64,000 bases of DNA, taken from Lachnotalea sp. AF33-28 (lineage in GTDB: Bacteria > Bacillota > Clostridia > Lachnospirales > Lachnospiraceae). The stretch's first letter is position 1; each line of letters starts with the position of its first letter. A program made the position numbers and the translations under genes. Where the stretch lies: positions 111,628 through 175,627 of the forward strand of contig NZ_QUEE01000006.1 of the NCBI RefSeq assembly GCF_003477885.1, given 5' to 3'. This document shows positions 12,245 to 63,508 of this stretch, in pieces. The notes under the pieces were generated by a model, which was not told the origin of the DNA, searched no databases, and worked only from the letters and a program-made list of their open reading frames with translations.

Positions 12245-13135
12245 GTGGATGAATTGAAGAAAAAAGGTTTAAACGGGGACCAGGTGTTTAAGGCGGCAAA
12301 CAGCGTACTGCTTCTCGTTGTCTGTCTGATCATGCTGTATCCGATGTTTTATGTGCTGGGACACTCGCTGATGTCGGACGTGGAACGTGCATCCAATCCT
12401 CTGCGGCTGGTGCCGAGGGCATTGGACTTATCCGGTTACCGGTTTGTCCTGTTTTCCGGGACGAGCATCGGGACGGCCTATAAGATAACCATACTGCGGA
12501 CAGCCGCGGGAACGCTGTTTAATGTGGCGGTCACAGCGCTGTTAGCCTACCCGCTGTCCAGGAAATACTATCCCGGCAGAAAGGCGCTGACGAAGATCGT
12601 TGTATTTACGATGTGGTTCAGCGGCGGCATGATACCGACCTTTCTGCTGATTAAGACGCTGAAGCTGACAAATAACTTCTGGGTCTATATTCTTCCGGGA
12701 CTGGTAAATCCATTCAACCTGATTATCTTGCGCAATTTCTTTATGCAGCTGCCGCCTTCCCTGGAGGAATCGGCAAAGCTGGACGGCGCCAACGATTTTG
12801 TGGTATTTACAAGGATCGTATTGCCGCTGTCCAAGGCGTCCATCGCGACGATCGCCCTGTTCTACGCCGTAACGCACTGGAATTCCTGGTATGATTCCAT
12901 GCTTTATGTGGGCGATAAATCCCTTTGGTCGCTGCAGTATGTCCTAAAGCAGATCATCTCCAGCGCCAGCGTGACCAACATGGCCACGGCCAGCACCGTG
13001 CTGGAGAACATACCGCCGGCGGAGACGGTGAAGATGGCTACGATCGTGGTCTCCACAATCCCGATCCTGTGTGTGTATCCTTTCCTGCAGAAATACTTTG
13101 TCAAAGGTGTTCTTGTGGGTTCGATAAAGGAGTAG
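12245..13135 (+). CDS. Carbohydrate ABC transporter permease (LplC-like)
   Basis: GTG start. Permease signature (KLDGANDFVVFTRIVLP). Confidence 0.8.
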   Translation: MDELKKKGLNGDQVFKAANSVLLLVVCLIMLYPMFYVLGHSLMSDVERASNPLRLVPRALDLSGYRFVLFSGTSIGTAYKITILRTAAGTLFNVAVTALLAYPLSRKYYPGRKALTKIVVFTMWFSGGMIPTFLLIKTLKLTNNFWVYILPGLVNPFNLIILRNFFMQLPPSLEESAKLDGANDFVVFTRIVLPLSKASIATIALFYAVTHWNSWYDSMLYVGDKSLWSLQYVLKQIISSASVTNMATASTVLENIPPAETVKMATIVVSTIPILCVYPFLQKYFVKGVLVGSIKE

Positions 13136-13142
13136 GGTATTA

Positions 13143-13333
13143 TTCACAGTTACCGAAAAGTTCCCGCACAAGAGAGGGCAGGGTATGGCCCTCATTGGGA
13201 CACGCTCTCGCTCCGTGAAGCGCGCAGCGGTTCTAACGCTGCACATTACGCAGCGAAAGAACCGGCGGGCTTCAAGGATCCCTATGAGGGCCATACCCTG
13301 TCCTCTCTTGCGCTGCTTTATCGGCAGCTTTGA
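13143..13333. repeat. Copy A of a ~190-200-bp structured repeat (33-bp inverted repeats around a conserved hairpin core)
   Basis: agagagggcagggtatggccctcattgggac ... ggatccctatgagggccataccctgtcctctc flanks the core gctctcgctccgtgaagcgcgcagcgg...ccggcgggcttcaa. The second copy is at 34638-34838 in inverse orientation. ORFs predicted inside it (12944..13537, 13272..13586) are spurious. Confidence 0.85.
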
Positions 13334-13446
13334 ATAATAGTAGGTGTAACAAGGAGTGAAGCGAGAGCTGCAAAAAAGAAATGCGCATAATAGCGCGCCT
13401 GCCATCAGCCTTTGGCTGGTGACAAAAGAAAGGAAGGAGAAAGAGA

Positions 13447-26663: not shown

Positions 26664-26727
26664 GACAAAATCATTCAACAGGCCCGCCCGCTTTACCGGC
26701 ATAGCTTCGGTAAAGCGGGCGGGCCTG
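26664..26727. terminator. Hairpin element copy 1 (bidirectional terminator-like), directly repeated at 30703-30765
   Basis: gacaaaatcattcaacaGGCCCGCCCGCTTTACCGgcatagcttCGGTAAAGCGGGCGGGCCtg, a ~20-bp stem starting 6 nt after the URO-D stop. Confidence 0.6.
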
Positions 26728-30680: not shown

Positions 30681-30702
30681 AGATCCGAAGGACTGACAGA
30701 CG

Positions 30703-30765
30703 ATAAAATCATTCAAAAGGCCAGCCCGCTTTACCGGTATAGCTTCGGTAAAGCGGGCTGGCCTG
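30703..30765. terminator. Hairpin element copy 2 (bidirectional terminator-like)
   Basis: gataaaatcattcaaaaGGCCAGCCCGCTTTACCGgtatagcttCGGTAAAGCGGGCTGGCCtg. It differs from copy 1 by a compensatory C-to-A / G-to-T change in the stem. It sits between the ABC gene stop and the convergent cotF-like stop. Confidence 0.6.
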
Positions 30766-33224: not shown

Positions 33225-34457
33225 TTATCCTTTCACAACGCCCGCTGTGCGCAGACGTTTCACCGGTATGACCAAGTCGCTCTGACAGGCCATCACCGCA
33301 TCAATGTCTTTGTAAGCGAAGCGGCTTTCCTCCGCCACATCCTGCTTATTTTTCTTCCCGAGCACCACGCCCCGGCTGTTTAAATCCAGCATCACCTGCT
33401 CGCAGGAGAAGGCGGCCATGGCGCCTTTTCTGGAAAAGCGCCTGCCGGCGCCGTGCGAGGAGGAGCAGAAGCTCTCTTTATTGCCCGTTCCCATGACGAT
33501 ATAGCTGTAAGAGCCCATGGCGCCCGGTATGACGGTGATTTCACCGTTGTTCGCCCGGGTGGCTCCTTTTCTGTGTACCCAGACATCCCTGTCATAGTGA
33601 TGCTCCAGCGCGGCATAATTGTGGTGGCAGTTGATCTCGCCGGAGAATTCCAGAGTCAGATCGGTATATTTGCCGATCCACTTTTCAAAGACGGATTTTA
33701 CGGACAGCATCATCTTTTCACGGTTTTCCCTGGCAAATTCCAGGCAGAGATTCATCCAGTTTAAGTAAGCCCGGCCCTCTTTGCTGTCTGTAGGTAAAAA
33801 AGCCAGACGGTATTCATCAGGCACATCGCTGTACCATCTGCGGTTTAGCTCTCGGGCTTTCGTATGGAAATAATCGCATACGCTCTTGCCGAAGTGCCGG
33901 CTGCCGGAATGGATCATAATACCCAGGTATCCTTCGTCATCCACCTGTACCTCGATGAAATGATTGCCTCCGCCCAGCGTCCCAATCTGGAAATAACCGG
34001 CATCCAGCTGGCCTAAAAGCTCCCCGTCCTTTTCATACAGATCGAACTCCTCAAAGGCTTTATCCAGCGTGTAGCAGGGCATCGCCGTCTTATGATGGGC
34101 AAACCCCACAGGGACATTGCGCAGTATATCGCCGATGATGCCCTGCAGCAGGGTACCGTTTCCGGTGGTGATCCCCTCAATTTCCTCCAGACGGATGTTG
34201 GTCTGGGTGTAGGCCATGCCACAGCCGATATCCACGCCCACAGCGTTAGGTATAATGACATCGCAGGCAGCGATGACGCCCCCGATGGGCATGCCCATGC
34301 CGGCATGGGTATCCGGCATCAGGCAGACCCACTTATGGAGGAAAGGAAGCCGGGAAAGGTGGTATGCCTGTGTCAGACAGGTCTCTTCCAGATCCTCTTT
34401 TCCGTTCAGCCAGACCCGTATCGGGTATTTCGTAGATTCATCAGAGATAACAAACAT
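33225..34457 (-). CDS. rtcB: RNA ligase RtcB (3'-phosphate/5'-hydroxyl nucleic acid ligase)
   Basis: 410 aa. Start MFVISDESTKYPIRVWL; the conserved RtcB core includes CLMPDTHAGMG. Track ORF from 34505. Confidence 0.9.
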   Translation of the reverse strand: MFVISDESTKYPIRVWLNGKEDLEETCLTQAYHLSRLPFLHKWVCLMPDTHAGMGMPIGGVIAACDVIIPNAVGVDIGCGMAYTQTNIRLEEIEGITTGNGTLLQGIIGDILRNVPVGFAHHKTAMPCYTLDKAFEEFDLYEKDGELLGQLDAGYFQIGTLGGGNHFIEVQVDDEGYLGIMIHSGSRHFGKSVCDYFHTKARELNRRWYSDVPDEYRLAFLPTDSKEGRAYLNWMNLCLEFARENREKMMLSVKSVFEKWIGKYTDLTLEFSGEINCHHNYAALEHHYDRDVWVHRKGATRANNGEITVIPGAMGSYSYIVMGTGNKESFCSSSHGAGRRFSRKGAMAAFSCEQVMLDLNSRGVVLGKKNKQDVAEESRFAYKDIDAVMACQSDLVIPVKRLRTAGVVKG

Positions 34458-34637
34458 ACAAATCACTTCCTTTCCTAATATATTAGCCGCGATCCGGCAG
34501 CTCATTTCCCATCCGGGATTAATTTGTTTGTTGTTTGCTATGGCTATATCATACAGGAAGATAATGGATGAATCATTTAAAAAAAGTTGCGAACATTAGA
34601 AGCCGGCTGTAGCTTTACGGCATCTATGAACAGATTA

Positions 34638-34838
34638 CTGTTCACACGCTGCCGATAAAGCAGCGTATGAGAGGACAGGGTATGGTTCTCATAGGGATCC
34701 CTTGAAGCCCGCCGGTACTTATTGCTGTGTATTTTACAGCATTAGTACCGCTGCGCGCTTCACGGAGCGAGAGCGGGTCCCAATGAGGACCATACCCTGT
34801 CCTCTCATACGCGGGAAGTTTTCGGTAACTGTGAACAG
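34638..34838. repeat. Copy B of the ~200-bp structured repeat (inverse orientation relative to copy A)
   Basis: Outer inverted repeat ctgttcaca/tgtgaacag. 33-bp inverted repeats tatgagaggacagggtatggttctcatagggatccc / gggtcccaatgaggaccataccctgtcctctcata. The central hairpin carries compensatory substitutions relative to copy A. Spurious ORFs 34642..34905 and 34734..34925 overlap it. Confidence 0.85.
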
Positions 34839-34923
34839 TAACAGCCTGGACCATTCGCAGTTGCGCCATTCTGTAATGTGCGTTAAGATGGATACATTGA
34901 TACAAGCTTTAAGGAGGAAATCC

Positions 34924-36177
34924 ATGGCGGAGTTTCAGGAACTGATTAAAAATTTTGAGAAGATCAGAGACTATATGAGAGAATTCTTTGTCTACGGCTG
35001 CAAAGTGCGCCAGGACTTCACCGGCAAGAGCCTGCGCACCTATGATAATGAGCGCCGGAGAATCGAATGTTTCCTGGGAGATTACATCCGTTCCGAATAT
35101 ACATCCAAGGGGAAACAGATCTACATCAGCGTGGACAGCAAGAACATCGCCCAAAATCCGCTCTATGCGGCCTGGAAGGCGAAGAGCTTTACCGATAACG
35201 ACATCATGCTTCATTTTTTTATCACGGACATCCTGTGGGACGGCAAAGAAAGAACGGTAACCGGCCTGACCGACCGGATCCTGGAGGAGTACGGGGTGGA
35301 ATTTGAGGAACAGACCGTGCGTTTGAAACTGAAAGAATACGAAGAGGAGGAGATCCTGCAGAGCAGGAAACAGGGAAAAGCCCTGTATTACCGCTTGGCT
35401 GAGCCGGAGGCATTTGAATCCTCCCCGCTCTATGAACACCTGATGGACGCGGTTAAGCTGTTTCAGGAGATATCGGCCTTCGGTTTTATCGGCAGCACCG
35501 TTTTGGACCGGGAGAGAACCGGCAACGATCTGTTCAGTTTTAAACACCACTATCTGGTCCACACGCTGGAGGACGGCGTGCTCAATGAACTGCTGGAAAC
35601 CATGCGCAGGCGCTGCAGAGTGCGGTTTGAGAACCGGAGCGCCCGTTCCGGCAGGGTCACACAGCAGGAGGGCGTTCCGCTGTCCGTATTTGTCAGCACG
35701 CAGACCGGCCGCCGTTACCTCTGCATATATTTGGAAGCAAAGCGGCGATTTGTCAACATGCGGCTGGATGCGATCTGCAGGGTGGTCAGGCTGGAGGAAT
35801 ATCCGGATTATGAAAAACGGCAGGAGGAGCTGCGCCGGAACCGAAAAGCCTGCTGGGGAGTATCCTTTTCCGGGAGTTCACGCAGCCTGCGCATGGAGGA
35901 AATCTGTCTGAAGCTGCGCATCGACGAAAAGAGGGAGGAATATGTGACGGACCGCCTGCGGCGGGAAGGCAGGGGAGGGGAAGTGCTGCGCATAGATGAG
36001 CATACCGTCCTGTACAGCGGAACCTTTTTCGACTGCAATGAGATGCTGCCCTGGATCAAAACCTTTACCGGAAGGATATTGGATATACAGGTGAGCAATC
36101 CGGCAGTTGCGGATAAGCTGACGAACGATCTGGACAGAATGTATCAGATGTACACAGACACTGCTAAGGAAGGATAG
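34924..36177 (+). CDS. WYL domain-containing protein (putative ligand-responsive transcription regulator), first of a tandem pair
   Basis: Start MAEFQELIKNF with an AGGAGGAAAT site; track ORF from 34702. WYL-type motif RRYLCIYLEAKRRFVNMRLDAICRVVRL and a C-terminal WCX-like region. Confidence 0.55.
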   Translation: MAEFQELIKNFEKIRDYMREFFVYGCKVRQDFTGKSLRTYDNERRRIECFLGDYIRSEYTSKGKQIYISVDSKNIAQNPLYAAWKAKSFTDNDIMLHFFITDILWDGKERTVTGLTDRILEEYGVEFEEQTVRLKLKEYEEEEILQSRKQGKALYYRLAEPEAFESSPLYEHLMDAVKLFQEISAFGFIGSTVLDRERTGNDLFSFKHHYLVHTLEDGVLNELLETMRRRCRVRFENRSARSGRVTQQEGVPLSVFVSTQTGRRYLCIYLEAKRRFVNMRLDAICRVVRLEEYPDYEKRQEELRRNRKACWGVSFSGSSRSLRMEEICLKLRIDEKREEYVTDRLRREGRGGEVLRIDEHTVLYSGTFFDCNEMLPWIKTFTGRILDIQVSNPAVADKLTNDLDRMYQMYTDTAKEG

Positions 36178-36179
36178 AG

Positions 36180-37178
36180 ATGGATTTATTTTCTAAGACA
36201 TACAGCTGTTATTATCAGGTGGTGGGCCGTATCCTGGAAGCGTCCCGAAAACGCCCCGTCAGCAGAAAAGAGATGGAGGAACTGGCGGGCCGCTGGGGCT
36301 TTTCTGAAAGTGCGCTTTACATAGTGCCCAAGCTCATGTCCGGCCAGTGGGCGCTTCTTCGGGAGGAGCCCAAAGGCTCTTATCTGTCCCGCTGCGGCAG
36401 CGACGTAAAGCTGCCTCTCACAGCCCTGCAGAAAAGCTGGCTGAAATCCGTCCTGCAGGATCCGAGGATATACCTGTTTTTTTCAGAGGAGGAAGTGTGC
36501 CGGCTGCAAGAGGATCTTAAGGAGGAACCGCTGCTCTTTAAATCCGGCGATTTCTATTATTTCGACCGCTGTCAGGACGGCGATCCGTACGGTGAAGACA
36601 CATACAGAAGAAATTTCCGCACCATGACCGAAGCAGTCCGCAGCCGCCATTTGATCGAAACGGATTACCGGCCGGCGGACGGCCGCCGGCGCAGCATCCG
36701 CCTTTTCCCGTTCCGCATCCAATATTCCGCCAAAGACGATAAGTTCAGAGTGGAGGGGATGCGCCTGAAGGAAAACGGCGGAGGCTATTCACAGGCCATA
36801 ACCCTGAACATGGCCAGAATCGTCTCCTGCCGGGACGCGGGGCCGGCTTATACCCTTCCGGATACGGAGGCCCTGATCGCCTCGATGAGAGCGGAAGAAC
36901 CGGTGCTCATCGAGATATCCGGCGAGCGCAATTCCATGGAACGCTGCATGCTGCATTTCGCCAGCTATGAAAAGCGGACGGAGTATATCGAAGAACGGGG
37001 AGTATACCGCTGTGAGATCTATTATGACAGGCAGGATGAGACAGAACTCCTGATCCAGCTTTTGTCCTTCGGTCCGGTCATACGCGTCCTGGGCCCAGCT
37101 CCATTCCTGCGCCAGGTAAAAGAGCGGGTGAAGAGGCAGTATCACCTGCTGCACGATATCATCCCGTCATCAGACTGA
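36180..37178 (+). CDS. WYL domain-containing protein, second of the tandem pair
   Basis: WYL-like segment [28 protein letters not shown]...TLNMARIVS and a C-terminal WCX-like [37 protein letters not shown]. The start is 3 nt after the upstream stop. Confidence 0.55.
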
Positions 37179-62752: not shown

Positions 62753-63424
62753 TCATTTTTTCAGGATTGTATCCACAATACCGCACAGTATTCCGCCTAT
62801 GGGAAAAACAACCCATGCCGGATGCCAGGCGCTCAGGAGAGAACCGCTTAAGAAAAAGACCAGCGTTGCGATACACATGATCAGGCTGCAGATCTTGTCG
62901 GATGTTTTTTTGCGCCGTTTGGCAATAGCCTTTGGATCCGTCTCTATGCGCATGGATGCCTTCACATCGGCGAATTTGCTGTTCGAGATATTTGCCACGA
63001 TGATGATGGCGACGCCCAGCATCATAAACAGCAGCATTGCGATGACGGGCATATTGGAATCCGCACCGAAGAAGGTTTCTAAAAAGAGCAGCGAGATGAT
63101 TCCCAGAAAAAACATGCACACTCCGGCCGCGATTGCCAGCGCATATTTGGTTTTAAAGGCCCGGTATTCCTCTAACGGCGTGGGTGCCAGAGGGTCCTGA
63201 TACCAGATTGCCGGGTCCACGCCCAGGCTGGCTTTCAGCTCTTCCACGTTGCCGAACTGTGAGACCACCAGCCCGAATGCTTCATCTTCATTTTTTCCTT
63301 CGGACAAAAGCCTCTCATAGTGCGTTTTCATAAGGGACTGGAGGTTGGATTTTGTTTTAGTTACGACCTCCGCTTCCGGCCATCCGGAAAATACATTTTG
63401 AATATAAGTTTCTATCTTATCCAT
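62753..63424 (-). CDS. Membrane protein with an N-terminal DUF1700/HAAS-like cytoplasmic domain
   Basis: N-terminal MDKIETYIQNVFSGWPE...EDEAFGLVVSQFGNVEEL pattern, followed by 3-4 TM helices. Confidence 0.45.
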   Translation of the reverse strand: MDKIETYIQNVFSGWPEAEVVTKTKSNLQSLMKTHYERLLSEGKNEDEAFGLVVSQFGNVEELKASLGVDPAIWYQDPLAPTPLEEYRAFKTKYALAIAAGVCMFFLGIISLLFLETFFGADSNMPVIAMLLFMMLGVAIIIVANISNSKFADVKASMRIETDPKAIAKRRKKTSDKICSLIMCIATLVFFLSGSLLSAWHPAWVVFPIGGILCGIVDTILKK

Positions 63425-63508
63425 AATCAGCTCTTAAAGTCCTTTCTGCTGTCACCAGCCTTAAGCGGATGACCTGCGCACACATCAGTGTGCTTCCTCT
63501 TTCGTCTT

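Follow-up and report, generated by a model that had tools for sequence, protein, structure and literature searches.

Two inversely oriented structured repeats of Lachnotalea sp. AF33-28 very probably belong to one family of hairpin-forming, non-autonomous DNA transposons

Introduction

The Correia elements of Neisseria, RUP of Streptococcus pneumoniae and the ERIC (IRU) sequences of enterobacteria are bacterial MITEs which fold into long hairpins. Correia elements duplicate TA and RUP duplicates a short target. REP/BIME sequences and the PATEs of IS200/IS605 have neither terminal inverted repeats nor a target duplication, are shorter, and depend on HUH enzymes, the REP hairpin carrying a 5' tetranucleotide. 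Template switching within a quasi-palindrome is an established mutational mechanism, by which one mutation can be turned into a compensated pair in a single step.

The DNA analysed here, hereafter called the window, is a stretch of 64,000 nucleotides from contig NZ_QUEE01000006.1 of Lachnotalea sp. AF33-28 (assembly GCF_003477885.1, positions 111,628 to 175,627 of the forward strand). It contains two copies of a structured repeat, A and B. With high confidence, both are assigned here to one family of hairpin-forming, non-autonomous DNA transposons (MITEs) in Lachnospiraceae. The family is apparently undescribed and of a known kind; full-text literature searches gave no description of a MITE in Lachnospiraceae, of a MITE in Clostridium with the features of this element, or of its core sequence.

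Results

Two copies of one element in the window

A first-pass annotation of the window, made from the letters alone, had reported two inversely oriented copies of a repeat at approximately 85% identity, and this was borne out: copies A and B were 85% identical over the whole element and 87-92% identical in ungapped blocks. The copies were found where they had been placed (13143-13333 and 34638-34838), but homology extended slightly further, to 13138-13341 and 34634-34842. The inverted arms were likewise real, but their length of 33 bp had been slightly underestimated, the repeat search giving 35 nt in copy A and, in copy B, two arms of 38 nt that are 92% complementary and separated by 74 nt. 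The copies and their parts were as follows.

34634-34842, + strand: putative MITE copy B, full length, 209 bp (nhmmer with a 35-copy family profile, E = 3e-67; homology with other copies ends exactly here)
13138-13341, - strand: putative MITE copy A, 204 bp, with degenerate ends and no clean target duplication (nhmmer, E = 6e-65)
34634-34645, + strand: left terminal inverted repeat of copy B, ATTACTGTTCAC (family consensus GTTACTGTTCAC)
34831-34842, + strand: right terminal inverted repeat of copy B, GTGAACAGTAAC
34647-34665, + strand: conserved subterminal segment CGCTGCCGATAAAGCAGCG, nearly invariant across 35 copies
34663-34700, + strand: 5' arm of the long stem of copy B, hypervariable in sequence between copies with pairing kept
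34775-34812, + strand: 3' arm of the long stem of copy B (repeat search)
34694-34781, + strand: asymmetric conserved core, approximately 88 nt, near-invariant in 35 copies
34713-34750, + strand: apical two-helix hairpin with compensatory changes, a swappable module
34598-34633, + strand: 36-nt relic of the right end of another copy (…GCTTTACGGCATCTATGAACAG), from the alignment with sister-lineage locus L130 and the family right-end consensus

The terminal repeats of copy B matched those of the family at 11/12 and 12/12 positions. The subterminal segment, together with 34812-34830, forms an imperfect extension of the terminal repeat, and it is a putative transposase-binding region. The core consists of helix P1 (GGGATCC/GGGTCCC), helix P2 (TTGAAGC/GCTTCA), the apical stem and a bulge on the 3' side (CACGGAGCGAGAGCG, 34761-34775). 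In the alignment of A with B, the conserved core flanks and the paired substitutions of the apical hairpin were as originally described, the hairpin reading TTCT..CGCTGC/GCAGCG..AGAA in copy A and TACT..TGCTGT/ACAGCA..AGTA in copy B, and the long arms showed further compensated differences. Folding of the + strand of copy B gave -132.3 kcal/mol, compared with -66.1 +/- 4.3 kcal/mol for shuffled sequences (z = -15.3), and the - strand folded almost as strongly (z = -14.2).

No coding capacity was apparent. The ORFs that cross copy B run on into unique flanks, and the arms differ among copies by paired substitutions and 1-nt indels that are incompatible with a conserved reading frame. The 36-nt relic directly adjoins copy B, so that the window holds two copies and one relic.

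A 64-nt direct repeat, separate from the element, was also present in the window (26664-26727 and 30702-30765, 92% identical). Each of its copies follows closely on the end of a long ORF and contains a perfect 20-bp GC-rich hairpin (CAGGCCCGCCCGCTTTACCG...CGGTAAAGCGGGCGGGCCTG), which could be a terminator-like or a REP-like palindrome.

Ends, target-site duplications and dispersal of the family

For definition of the ends, 36 copies were aligned with 160-nt flanks. Homology stopped sharply at GTTACTGTTCAC on the left and at GTGAACAGTAAC on the right, which constitute 12-bp terminal inverted repeats (30 or more copies), with approximately 20 bp of imperfectly repeated subterminal sequence inside each. 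The 8-bp flanks were identical at 8/8 positions in 8 of 28 scorable copies and at 7/8 positions in 4 of the 28, several being offset by 1 nt; by chance, a given copy would show an 8/8 match with a probability of about 1.5e-5. Examples of perfect 8-bp duplications are TGTGTTTT, TAGGTTAC, TTTTATAC, ATTACCAT and GTACCGGT. The size of the element was approximately 207-209 bp in the family, or 204-209 bp if copy A is included.

The family was searched for by scanning public collections with a pattern derived from the conserved core, which detected two species-representative genomes and approximately 45 true copies in metagenome contigs. The metagenome scan gave 118 matches, most of them chance matches in GC-rich soil genomes, and the true copies were recognised by an extended motif. 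A human-gut assembly, OGGQ01, contained at least 35 copies dispersed on different contigs, in addition to truncated and internally deleted ones. The profile search also recovered solo ends, truncated copies, and derivatives of 67-104 bp that had lost internal sequence but not their two ends; extra solitary matches to the terminal repeat were dismissed as truncated copies or chance.

Every copy was intergenic. With four redundant same-species loci excluded, the neighbouring genes were both on the strand of the element for 12 copies and both on the other strand for 8, and they were divergent for 8 copies and convergent for 6, showing no bias of orientation. Metagenome contigs of the same species ended inside both window copies (L128/L129; L138-140), in keeping with assemblers stopping at multi-copy repeats. 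Copy B was 95.7% identical to copies in the OGGQ01 organism, compared with 85% to copy A. The only ORF pair compared across the two organisms was 57% identical, so that sub-families of the element are common to distinct hosts.

The terminal repeats, the flank matches and the many dispersed, intergenic and unoriented copies together argue for a MITE with an 8-bp target-site duplication, and speak against the initial interpretation of a selected structure rather than a transposon. The counting of copies and the definition of ends or target-site duplications, proposed in the first-pass annotation, thus yielded ends, 8-bp duplications and the numerous OGGQ01 copies, but neither window copy has an intact duplication: the target-site duplication is a property of the family. 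In copy B, which adjoins the relic of another copy, repeated hits or rearrangements at the rtcB/WYL site account for the lack of a clean one; in copy A, the ends are degenerate.

No autonomous element with matching ends was found in approximately 0.4 Mb of element-bearing contigs, and when the ORFs of 150 aa or more from the 44 loci bearing the element were compared all against all by BLASTP, no repeated protein that could be a transposase was revealed. A phage or plasmid origin was rejected, as blastn gave no matches in plasmid and phage collections, and pattern scans of viral contigs gave only GC-rich or coding chance matches.

Being strongly palindromic, intergenic and present in many copies, with arms whose structure is kept more than their sequence, the element could also be taken for a palindrome of the REP/BIME type or one derived from IS200/IS605 (PATE), which an HUH (Y1) transposase or a RAYT would move in the form of single-stranded DNA. 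This is extremely unlikely, since those systems produce neither the 8-bp duplications nor the 12-bp terminal repeats of the family; moreover, the element of approximately 209 bp is far longer than a REP unit, and no repeated ORF resembling RAYT, TnpA or TnpB was present in the element-bearing contigs.

The orthologous loci with and without the element

Copy B was confirmed to lie between rtcB and a WYL-like gene, and copy A lies antisense, on the - strand, within an ABC-transporter (sugar-transport) operon. The genes and the motif adjoining the two copies were the following.

33225-34505, - strand: rtcB (RNA ligase), left neighbour of copy B (Pfam RtcB, PF01139, E = 7e-110)
34924-36177, + strand: WYL-like putative regulator, 417 aa, right neighbour of copy B (Pfam WYL, 20.9 bits, just under threshold)
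36180-37178: protein of 332 aa without a family match, in tandem after the WYL-like gene
34573-34593, + strand: intergenic motif TCATTTAAAAAAAGTTGCGAA (given also as TCATTTAAAAAAAGKTGCGAA), outside the putative MITE
12245-13135: permease gene; copy A lies 3 nt after its stop codon
13447-15051: binding-protein gene of the ABC operon, downstream of copy A (product identical to WP_118556552.1)

Homologues of the WYL-like protein are named 'WYL domain-containing protein' at NCBI. The arrangement of the WYL-like and 332-aa genes, divergent from rtcB, was kept in Lachnospiraceae relatives, and the two proteins had no detectable similarity to each other. By analogy with two-subunit WYL regulators, they may form a regulator pair for the RNA-repair ligase. 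The motif at 34573-34593 was the only intergenic sequence common to the rtcB/WYL loci of relatives at approximately 60% identity (L131, L132) and of a sister lineage (L130), and it may be an operator or promoter element native to the rtcB/WYL pair. The first MITE-derived base lies 5 nt to the right of it. A possible sigma-70 promoter of the WYL-like gene, TTGCGC-17-TAAGAT (34861-34889), was a visual guess; the promoter scanner made no call there, and it was not retained.

All same-species contigs with rtcB or the binding-protein gene had the same spacing as the window, indicating that both copies are fixed in the species. Relatives with a WYL-like protein of about 60% identity kept the divergent rtcB/WYL arrangement with 152-308 bp of intergenic DNA and without the element. 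At the other locus, the gap between the permease and binding-protein genes was 5 nt in relative L150, the binding protein of which is 61% identical, compared with 311 nt in the window.

The sister lineage, with a WYL-like protein of 96% identity and flanks of 97-100% identity, retained only remnants of both copies. A 67-bp two-ended scar, consisting of 35 nt of the left end and 32 nt of the right end, occupied the site of copy B (L130:2853-2919), the arms and core being gone; the stretch corresponding to the adjoining relic (34598-34633) was also missing. Its copy A (L151:1280-1524) had undergone a 112-bp deletion between GAGGGC direct repeats, with loss of the core and one arm. Neighbouring genes were intact at both loci, and the structured part of the element is thus dispensable at both. 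The independent internal deletions in the two copies illustrate the instability of the palindrome. No precise empty site with a single target copy was recovered at either orthologous locus, and the status of the window copies as transpositions rests on family membership and the element-free relatives rather than on such a site.

These comparisons bear on the proposal that copy B encodes an sRNA or takes part in regulating rtcB and the WYL-like gene, whether as a cis-regulatory element such as a leader of the WYL mRNA or as a ligand or decoy of the WYL regulator. Copy B does lie in the divergent control region, 5 nt from its sole conserved intergenic motif, the + strand of the copy is co-oriented with the WYL-like gene, and all sampled same-species contigs carry it. 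The proposal is nevertheless very unlikely to be correct: relatives have the same gene pair without the element, the sister lineage keeps just the scar, an 85%-identical copy lies antisense in an unrelated sugar-transport operon, and dozens of copies are found at unrelated loci. Neither a sigma-70-like promoter nor an intrinsic (T-tract) terminator was detected inside copy A or copy B, which speaks against an independent sRNA gene, a cis-regulatory leader and a terminator function alike, the first two also on account of the random orientation of the copies, the loss in the sister lineage and the absence from relatives, and terminator or leader function also for lack of an orientation bias.

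The Rfam search, likewise proposed in the first-pass annotation, revealed no family. At gathering thresholds, Rfam 15 had no match to the element in the window or in related loci, and at E <= 10 it gave only generic long-hairpin matches to plant miRNA precursors. No tRNA-like gene was found. A bacterial Y RNA (YrlA-like, considered because of the adjacent rtcB), a 6S-like RNA, a retron ncRNA and a ribozyme were rejected, there being no Rfam or tRNA-like signal for any of them and no Ro or RT gene nearby, and the copies being at unrelated loci. A host RNA or rtcB/WYL regulatory role for the element is therefore not supported. The sole Rfam match in the fetched loci, a COG2827 RNA (72 bits, L007:3076-3176), was unrelated to the element.

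Extent and origin of the covariation

The compensatory changes noted between the two window copies held as a feature of a real structured element throughout 35 copies: 96.6% of cells were standard-paired and 33 of 64 pairs were altered on both sides (177 cells), to which none of 500 shuffles and no slid register came close. Non-Watson-Crick cells in the arms of the window's family, hereafter type 1, were strand-symmetric (17 G.U and 14 A.C), and the mean folding energies of the two strands were equal (-130.8 and -129.5 kcal/mol). Many swaps were of the transversion type (CG<->GC, UA<->AU), for which no wobble intermediate is possible, and single-sided wobble states were rare.

In one copy (L111:5842-6049), the asymmetric 3' side of the core, including the bulge, was gone and the exact complement of the 5' side stood in its place, resulting in a perfect palindrome. 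This is likely to have been a template-switch correction event. Taken together, the strand symmetry, the transversion-type swaps and this templated correction argue against taking the covariation as a sign of an RNA gene. Template switching would be one source of the paired changes in this family, and selection for fold-back in copies that are still transposing is a candidate alternative or additional cause. In our view, the paired changes arise from the nature of the element rather than from any function in the host.

The conserved core and related longer elements

The core was near-invariant and asymmetric in 35 copies, with a stretch of 8-10 nt in each arm taking many mutually complementary sequences. 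The same core was present in three OGGQ01 copies which lack the GTTACTGTTCAC ends and have unrelated arms, and in hairpins of approximately 330 nt (type 2/3 elements) from Clostridium transplantifaecale, an uncultured Clostridium and another metagenome. The arms and ends of the type 2/3 elements were unrelated in sequence, while the core helices P1, P2 and P3 covaried and the 3' bulge was kept. Long relatives (L001:1-800, L002:3200-4090, L064:540-1250) were rod-like and often arranged as head-to-head pairs around a spacer of about 150 nt that holds the palindrome CAGGAGGCATTCTCCTG; the L002 pair, a single case, was flanked on both sides by a CTTTTTA duplication. The MITE model needs an extra constraint on the core, for example a protein-binding site or a fold.

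It is conceivable, though unlikely, that the core, consisting of P1, P2, an internal loop, P3 with its apical module, and a 3' bulge that holds a GNRA-like mini-hairpin, functions as a single-stranded module which at least three mobile hairpin scaffolds of different architecture have spread across Lachnospiraceae. Such a module might act as a structured RNA produced by the elements, or as a single-stranded DNA form used in mobilisation. The transposon would then be a vehicle, and the core either its payload or an essential single-stranded recombination structure, which would explain a fixed core amid turnover around it. The near-invariance of the core among 35 copies that differ at many paired positions of the arms, and its recurrence among elements with other, unrelated arms, where P1, P2 and P3 covary and the 3' bulge is retained, are in line with this possibility. 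So are the loop of the bulge mini-hairpin, four of the five distinct variants of which were GNRA-like when read on the B+ strand (GAGA, GGGA, GAAA, GCGA), and the fixed wobble pairs of the core, all of which were G.U on one strand. The G.U pairs of the type 2/3 elements were also strand-biased (77 versus 25 over seven elements), a hint that, at least in that branch, the functional form is single-stranded. The strand hints conflict, however, since the loops and fixed G.U pairs of type 1 and the arms of types 2/3 favour opposite strands, and the type 1 arms have no strand asymmetry. Absence of an orientation bias and of a promoter, loss of the core from both window loci in the sister lineage with neighbouring genes unaffected, loss of the bulge by templated correction in L111, and the lack of anything similar in Rfam also count against it.

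The apical hairpin was modular, a different two-hairpin unit taking its place in three variants of the element (L036:6488-6714, L056:10507-10728, L074:3255-3481). The same unit, of approximately 50-56 nt and with the structure GGAAGCACGC-AAAAA-GCGTGCGC AGGTCATCAACC-TGC-GGTTGGTGAC, forms a second small repeat family in the window, with these copies.

2271-2326, + strand: two-hairpin unit
2327-2382, + strand: two-hairpin unit
13385-13432, + strand: two-hairpin unit
63445-63495, - strand: two-hairpin unit

The window units were always sense and 15-25 nt upstream of a start codon, the genes that follow being an ABC ATPase (2403), the binding protein (13447) and an ORF of unknown function ending at 63424. 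The pattern CATCN7GGNTGGTGAC occurred exactly four times in the window, compared with 0.12 matches expected at up to one mismatch. The unit had no Rfam match.

Discussion

The most probable explanation for copies A and B is a MITE family which would be mobilised in trans. A DDE-type transposase supplied by an insertion sequence would bind the ends and make cuts staggered by 8 bp; insertion produces the 8-bp target duplication. The whole element is a quasi-palindrome, the arms diverging widely between sub-lineages and yet remaining complementary, which may be upheld by hairpin-templated correction, by fold-back selection in transposing copies, or by both. Copy B would be an old insertion, fixed in the species beside the relic of an earlier copy, at a site with a history of repeated hits or rearrangements.

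The insertion adds approximately 245 bp between the conserved intergenic motif and the WYL-like gene. The effects at both loci are likely to be incidental, such as a change in the spacing of the divergent control region. If transcribed, the element would place a very stable 38-bp stem in the RNA; copy A must be transcribed with its neighbours, provided that the genes of the ABC operon form a single unit.

Even where the helices of paralogous repeats covary strongly, this need not mean a host RNA gene, and repeats of this kind should be filtered out of structured-RNA screens by means of their ends, target duplications and orientation. The family also fragments metagenome assemblies, is found within operons and in regions of divergent promoters, and decays through deletions mediated by its palindrome.

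The family shares with the Correia, RUP and ERIC elements a length within 100-300 bp, the lack of coding sequence, terminal inverted repeats, a target-site duplication and many intergenic copies in either orientation. The whole-element quasi-palindrome and the internally deleted variants are also common to them, and the known families are often co-transcribed with their neighbours. It differs from them in its 8-bp duplication, its gut Lachnospiraceae hosts and its near-invariant asymmetric core with a swappable apical module; furthermore, no partner insertion sequence was found here, nor any similarity in plasmid and phage collections or Rfam.

The 8-bp target duplication and a short terminal repeat containing CTGTT are also features of the IS6/IS26 family. 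The ends of IS26 (GGCACTGTTGCAAA) and IS257 (GGTTCTGTTGCAAAGT) have CTGTT near the tip as does GTTACTGTTCAC, although agreement is limited to approximately 7 of 11-12 terminal bases. Near the copies in the element-bearing contigs there was no transposase gene of the IS6 type, and an IS6/IS26-type insertion sequence as the source of the transposase is a lead only.

REP/BIME sequences and IS200/IS605 PATEs are similar in being intergenic palindromes with structure conserved over sequence, but their defining features are at variance with the terminal repeats and 8-bp duplications present here. Finally, the head-to-head hairpin pairs of types 2/3 resemble foldback-type elements with long structured terminal repeats, whereas each window copy is one short hairpin with ends of 12 bp, and composites were seen solely in other genomes.
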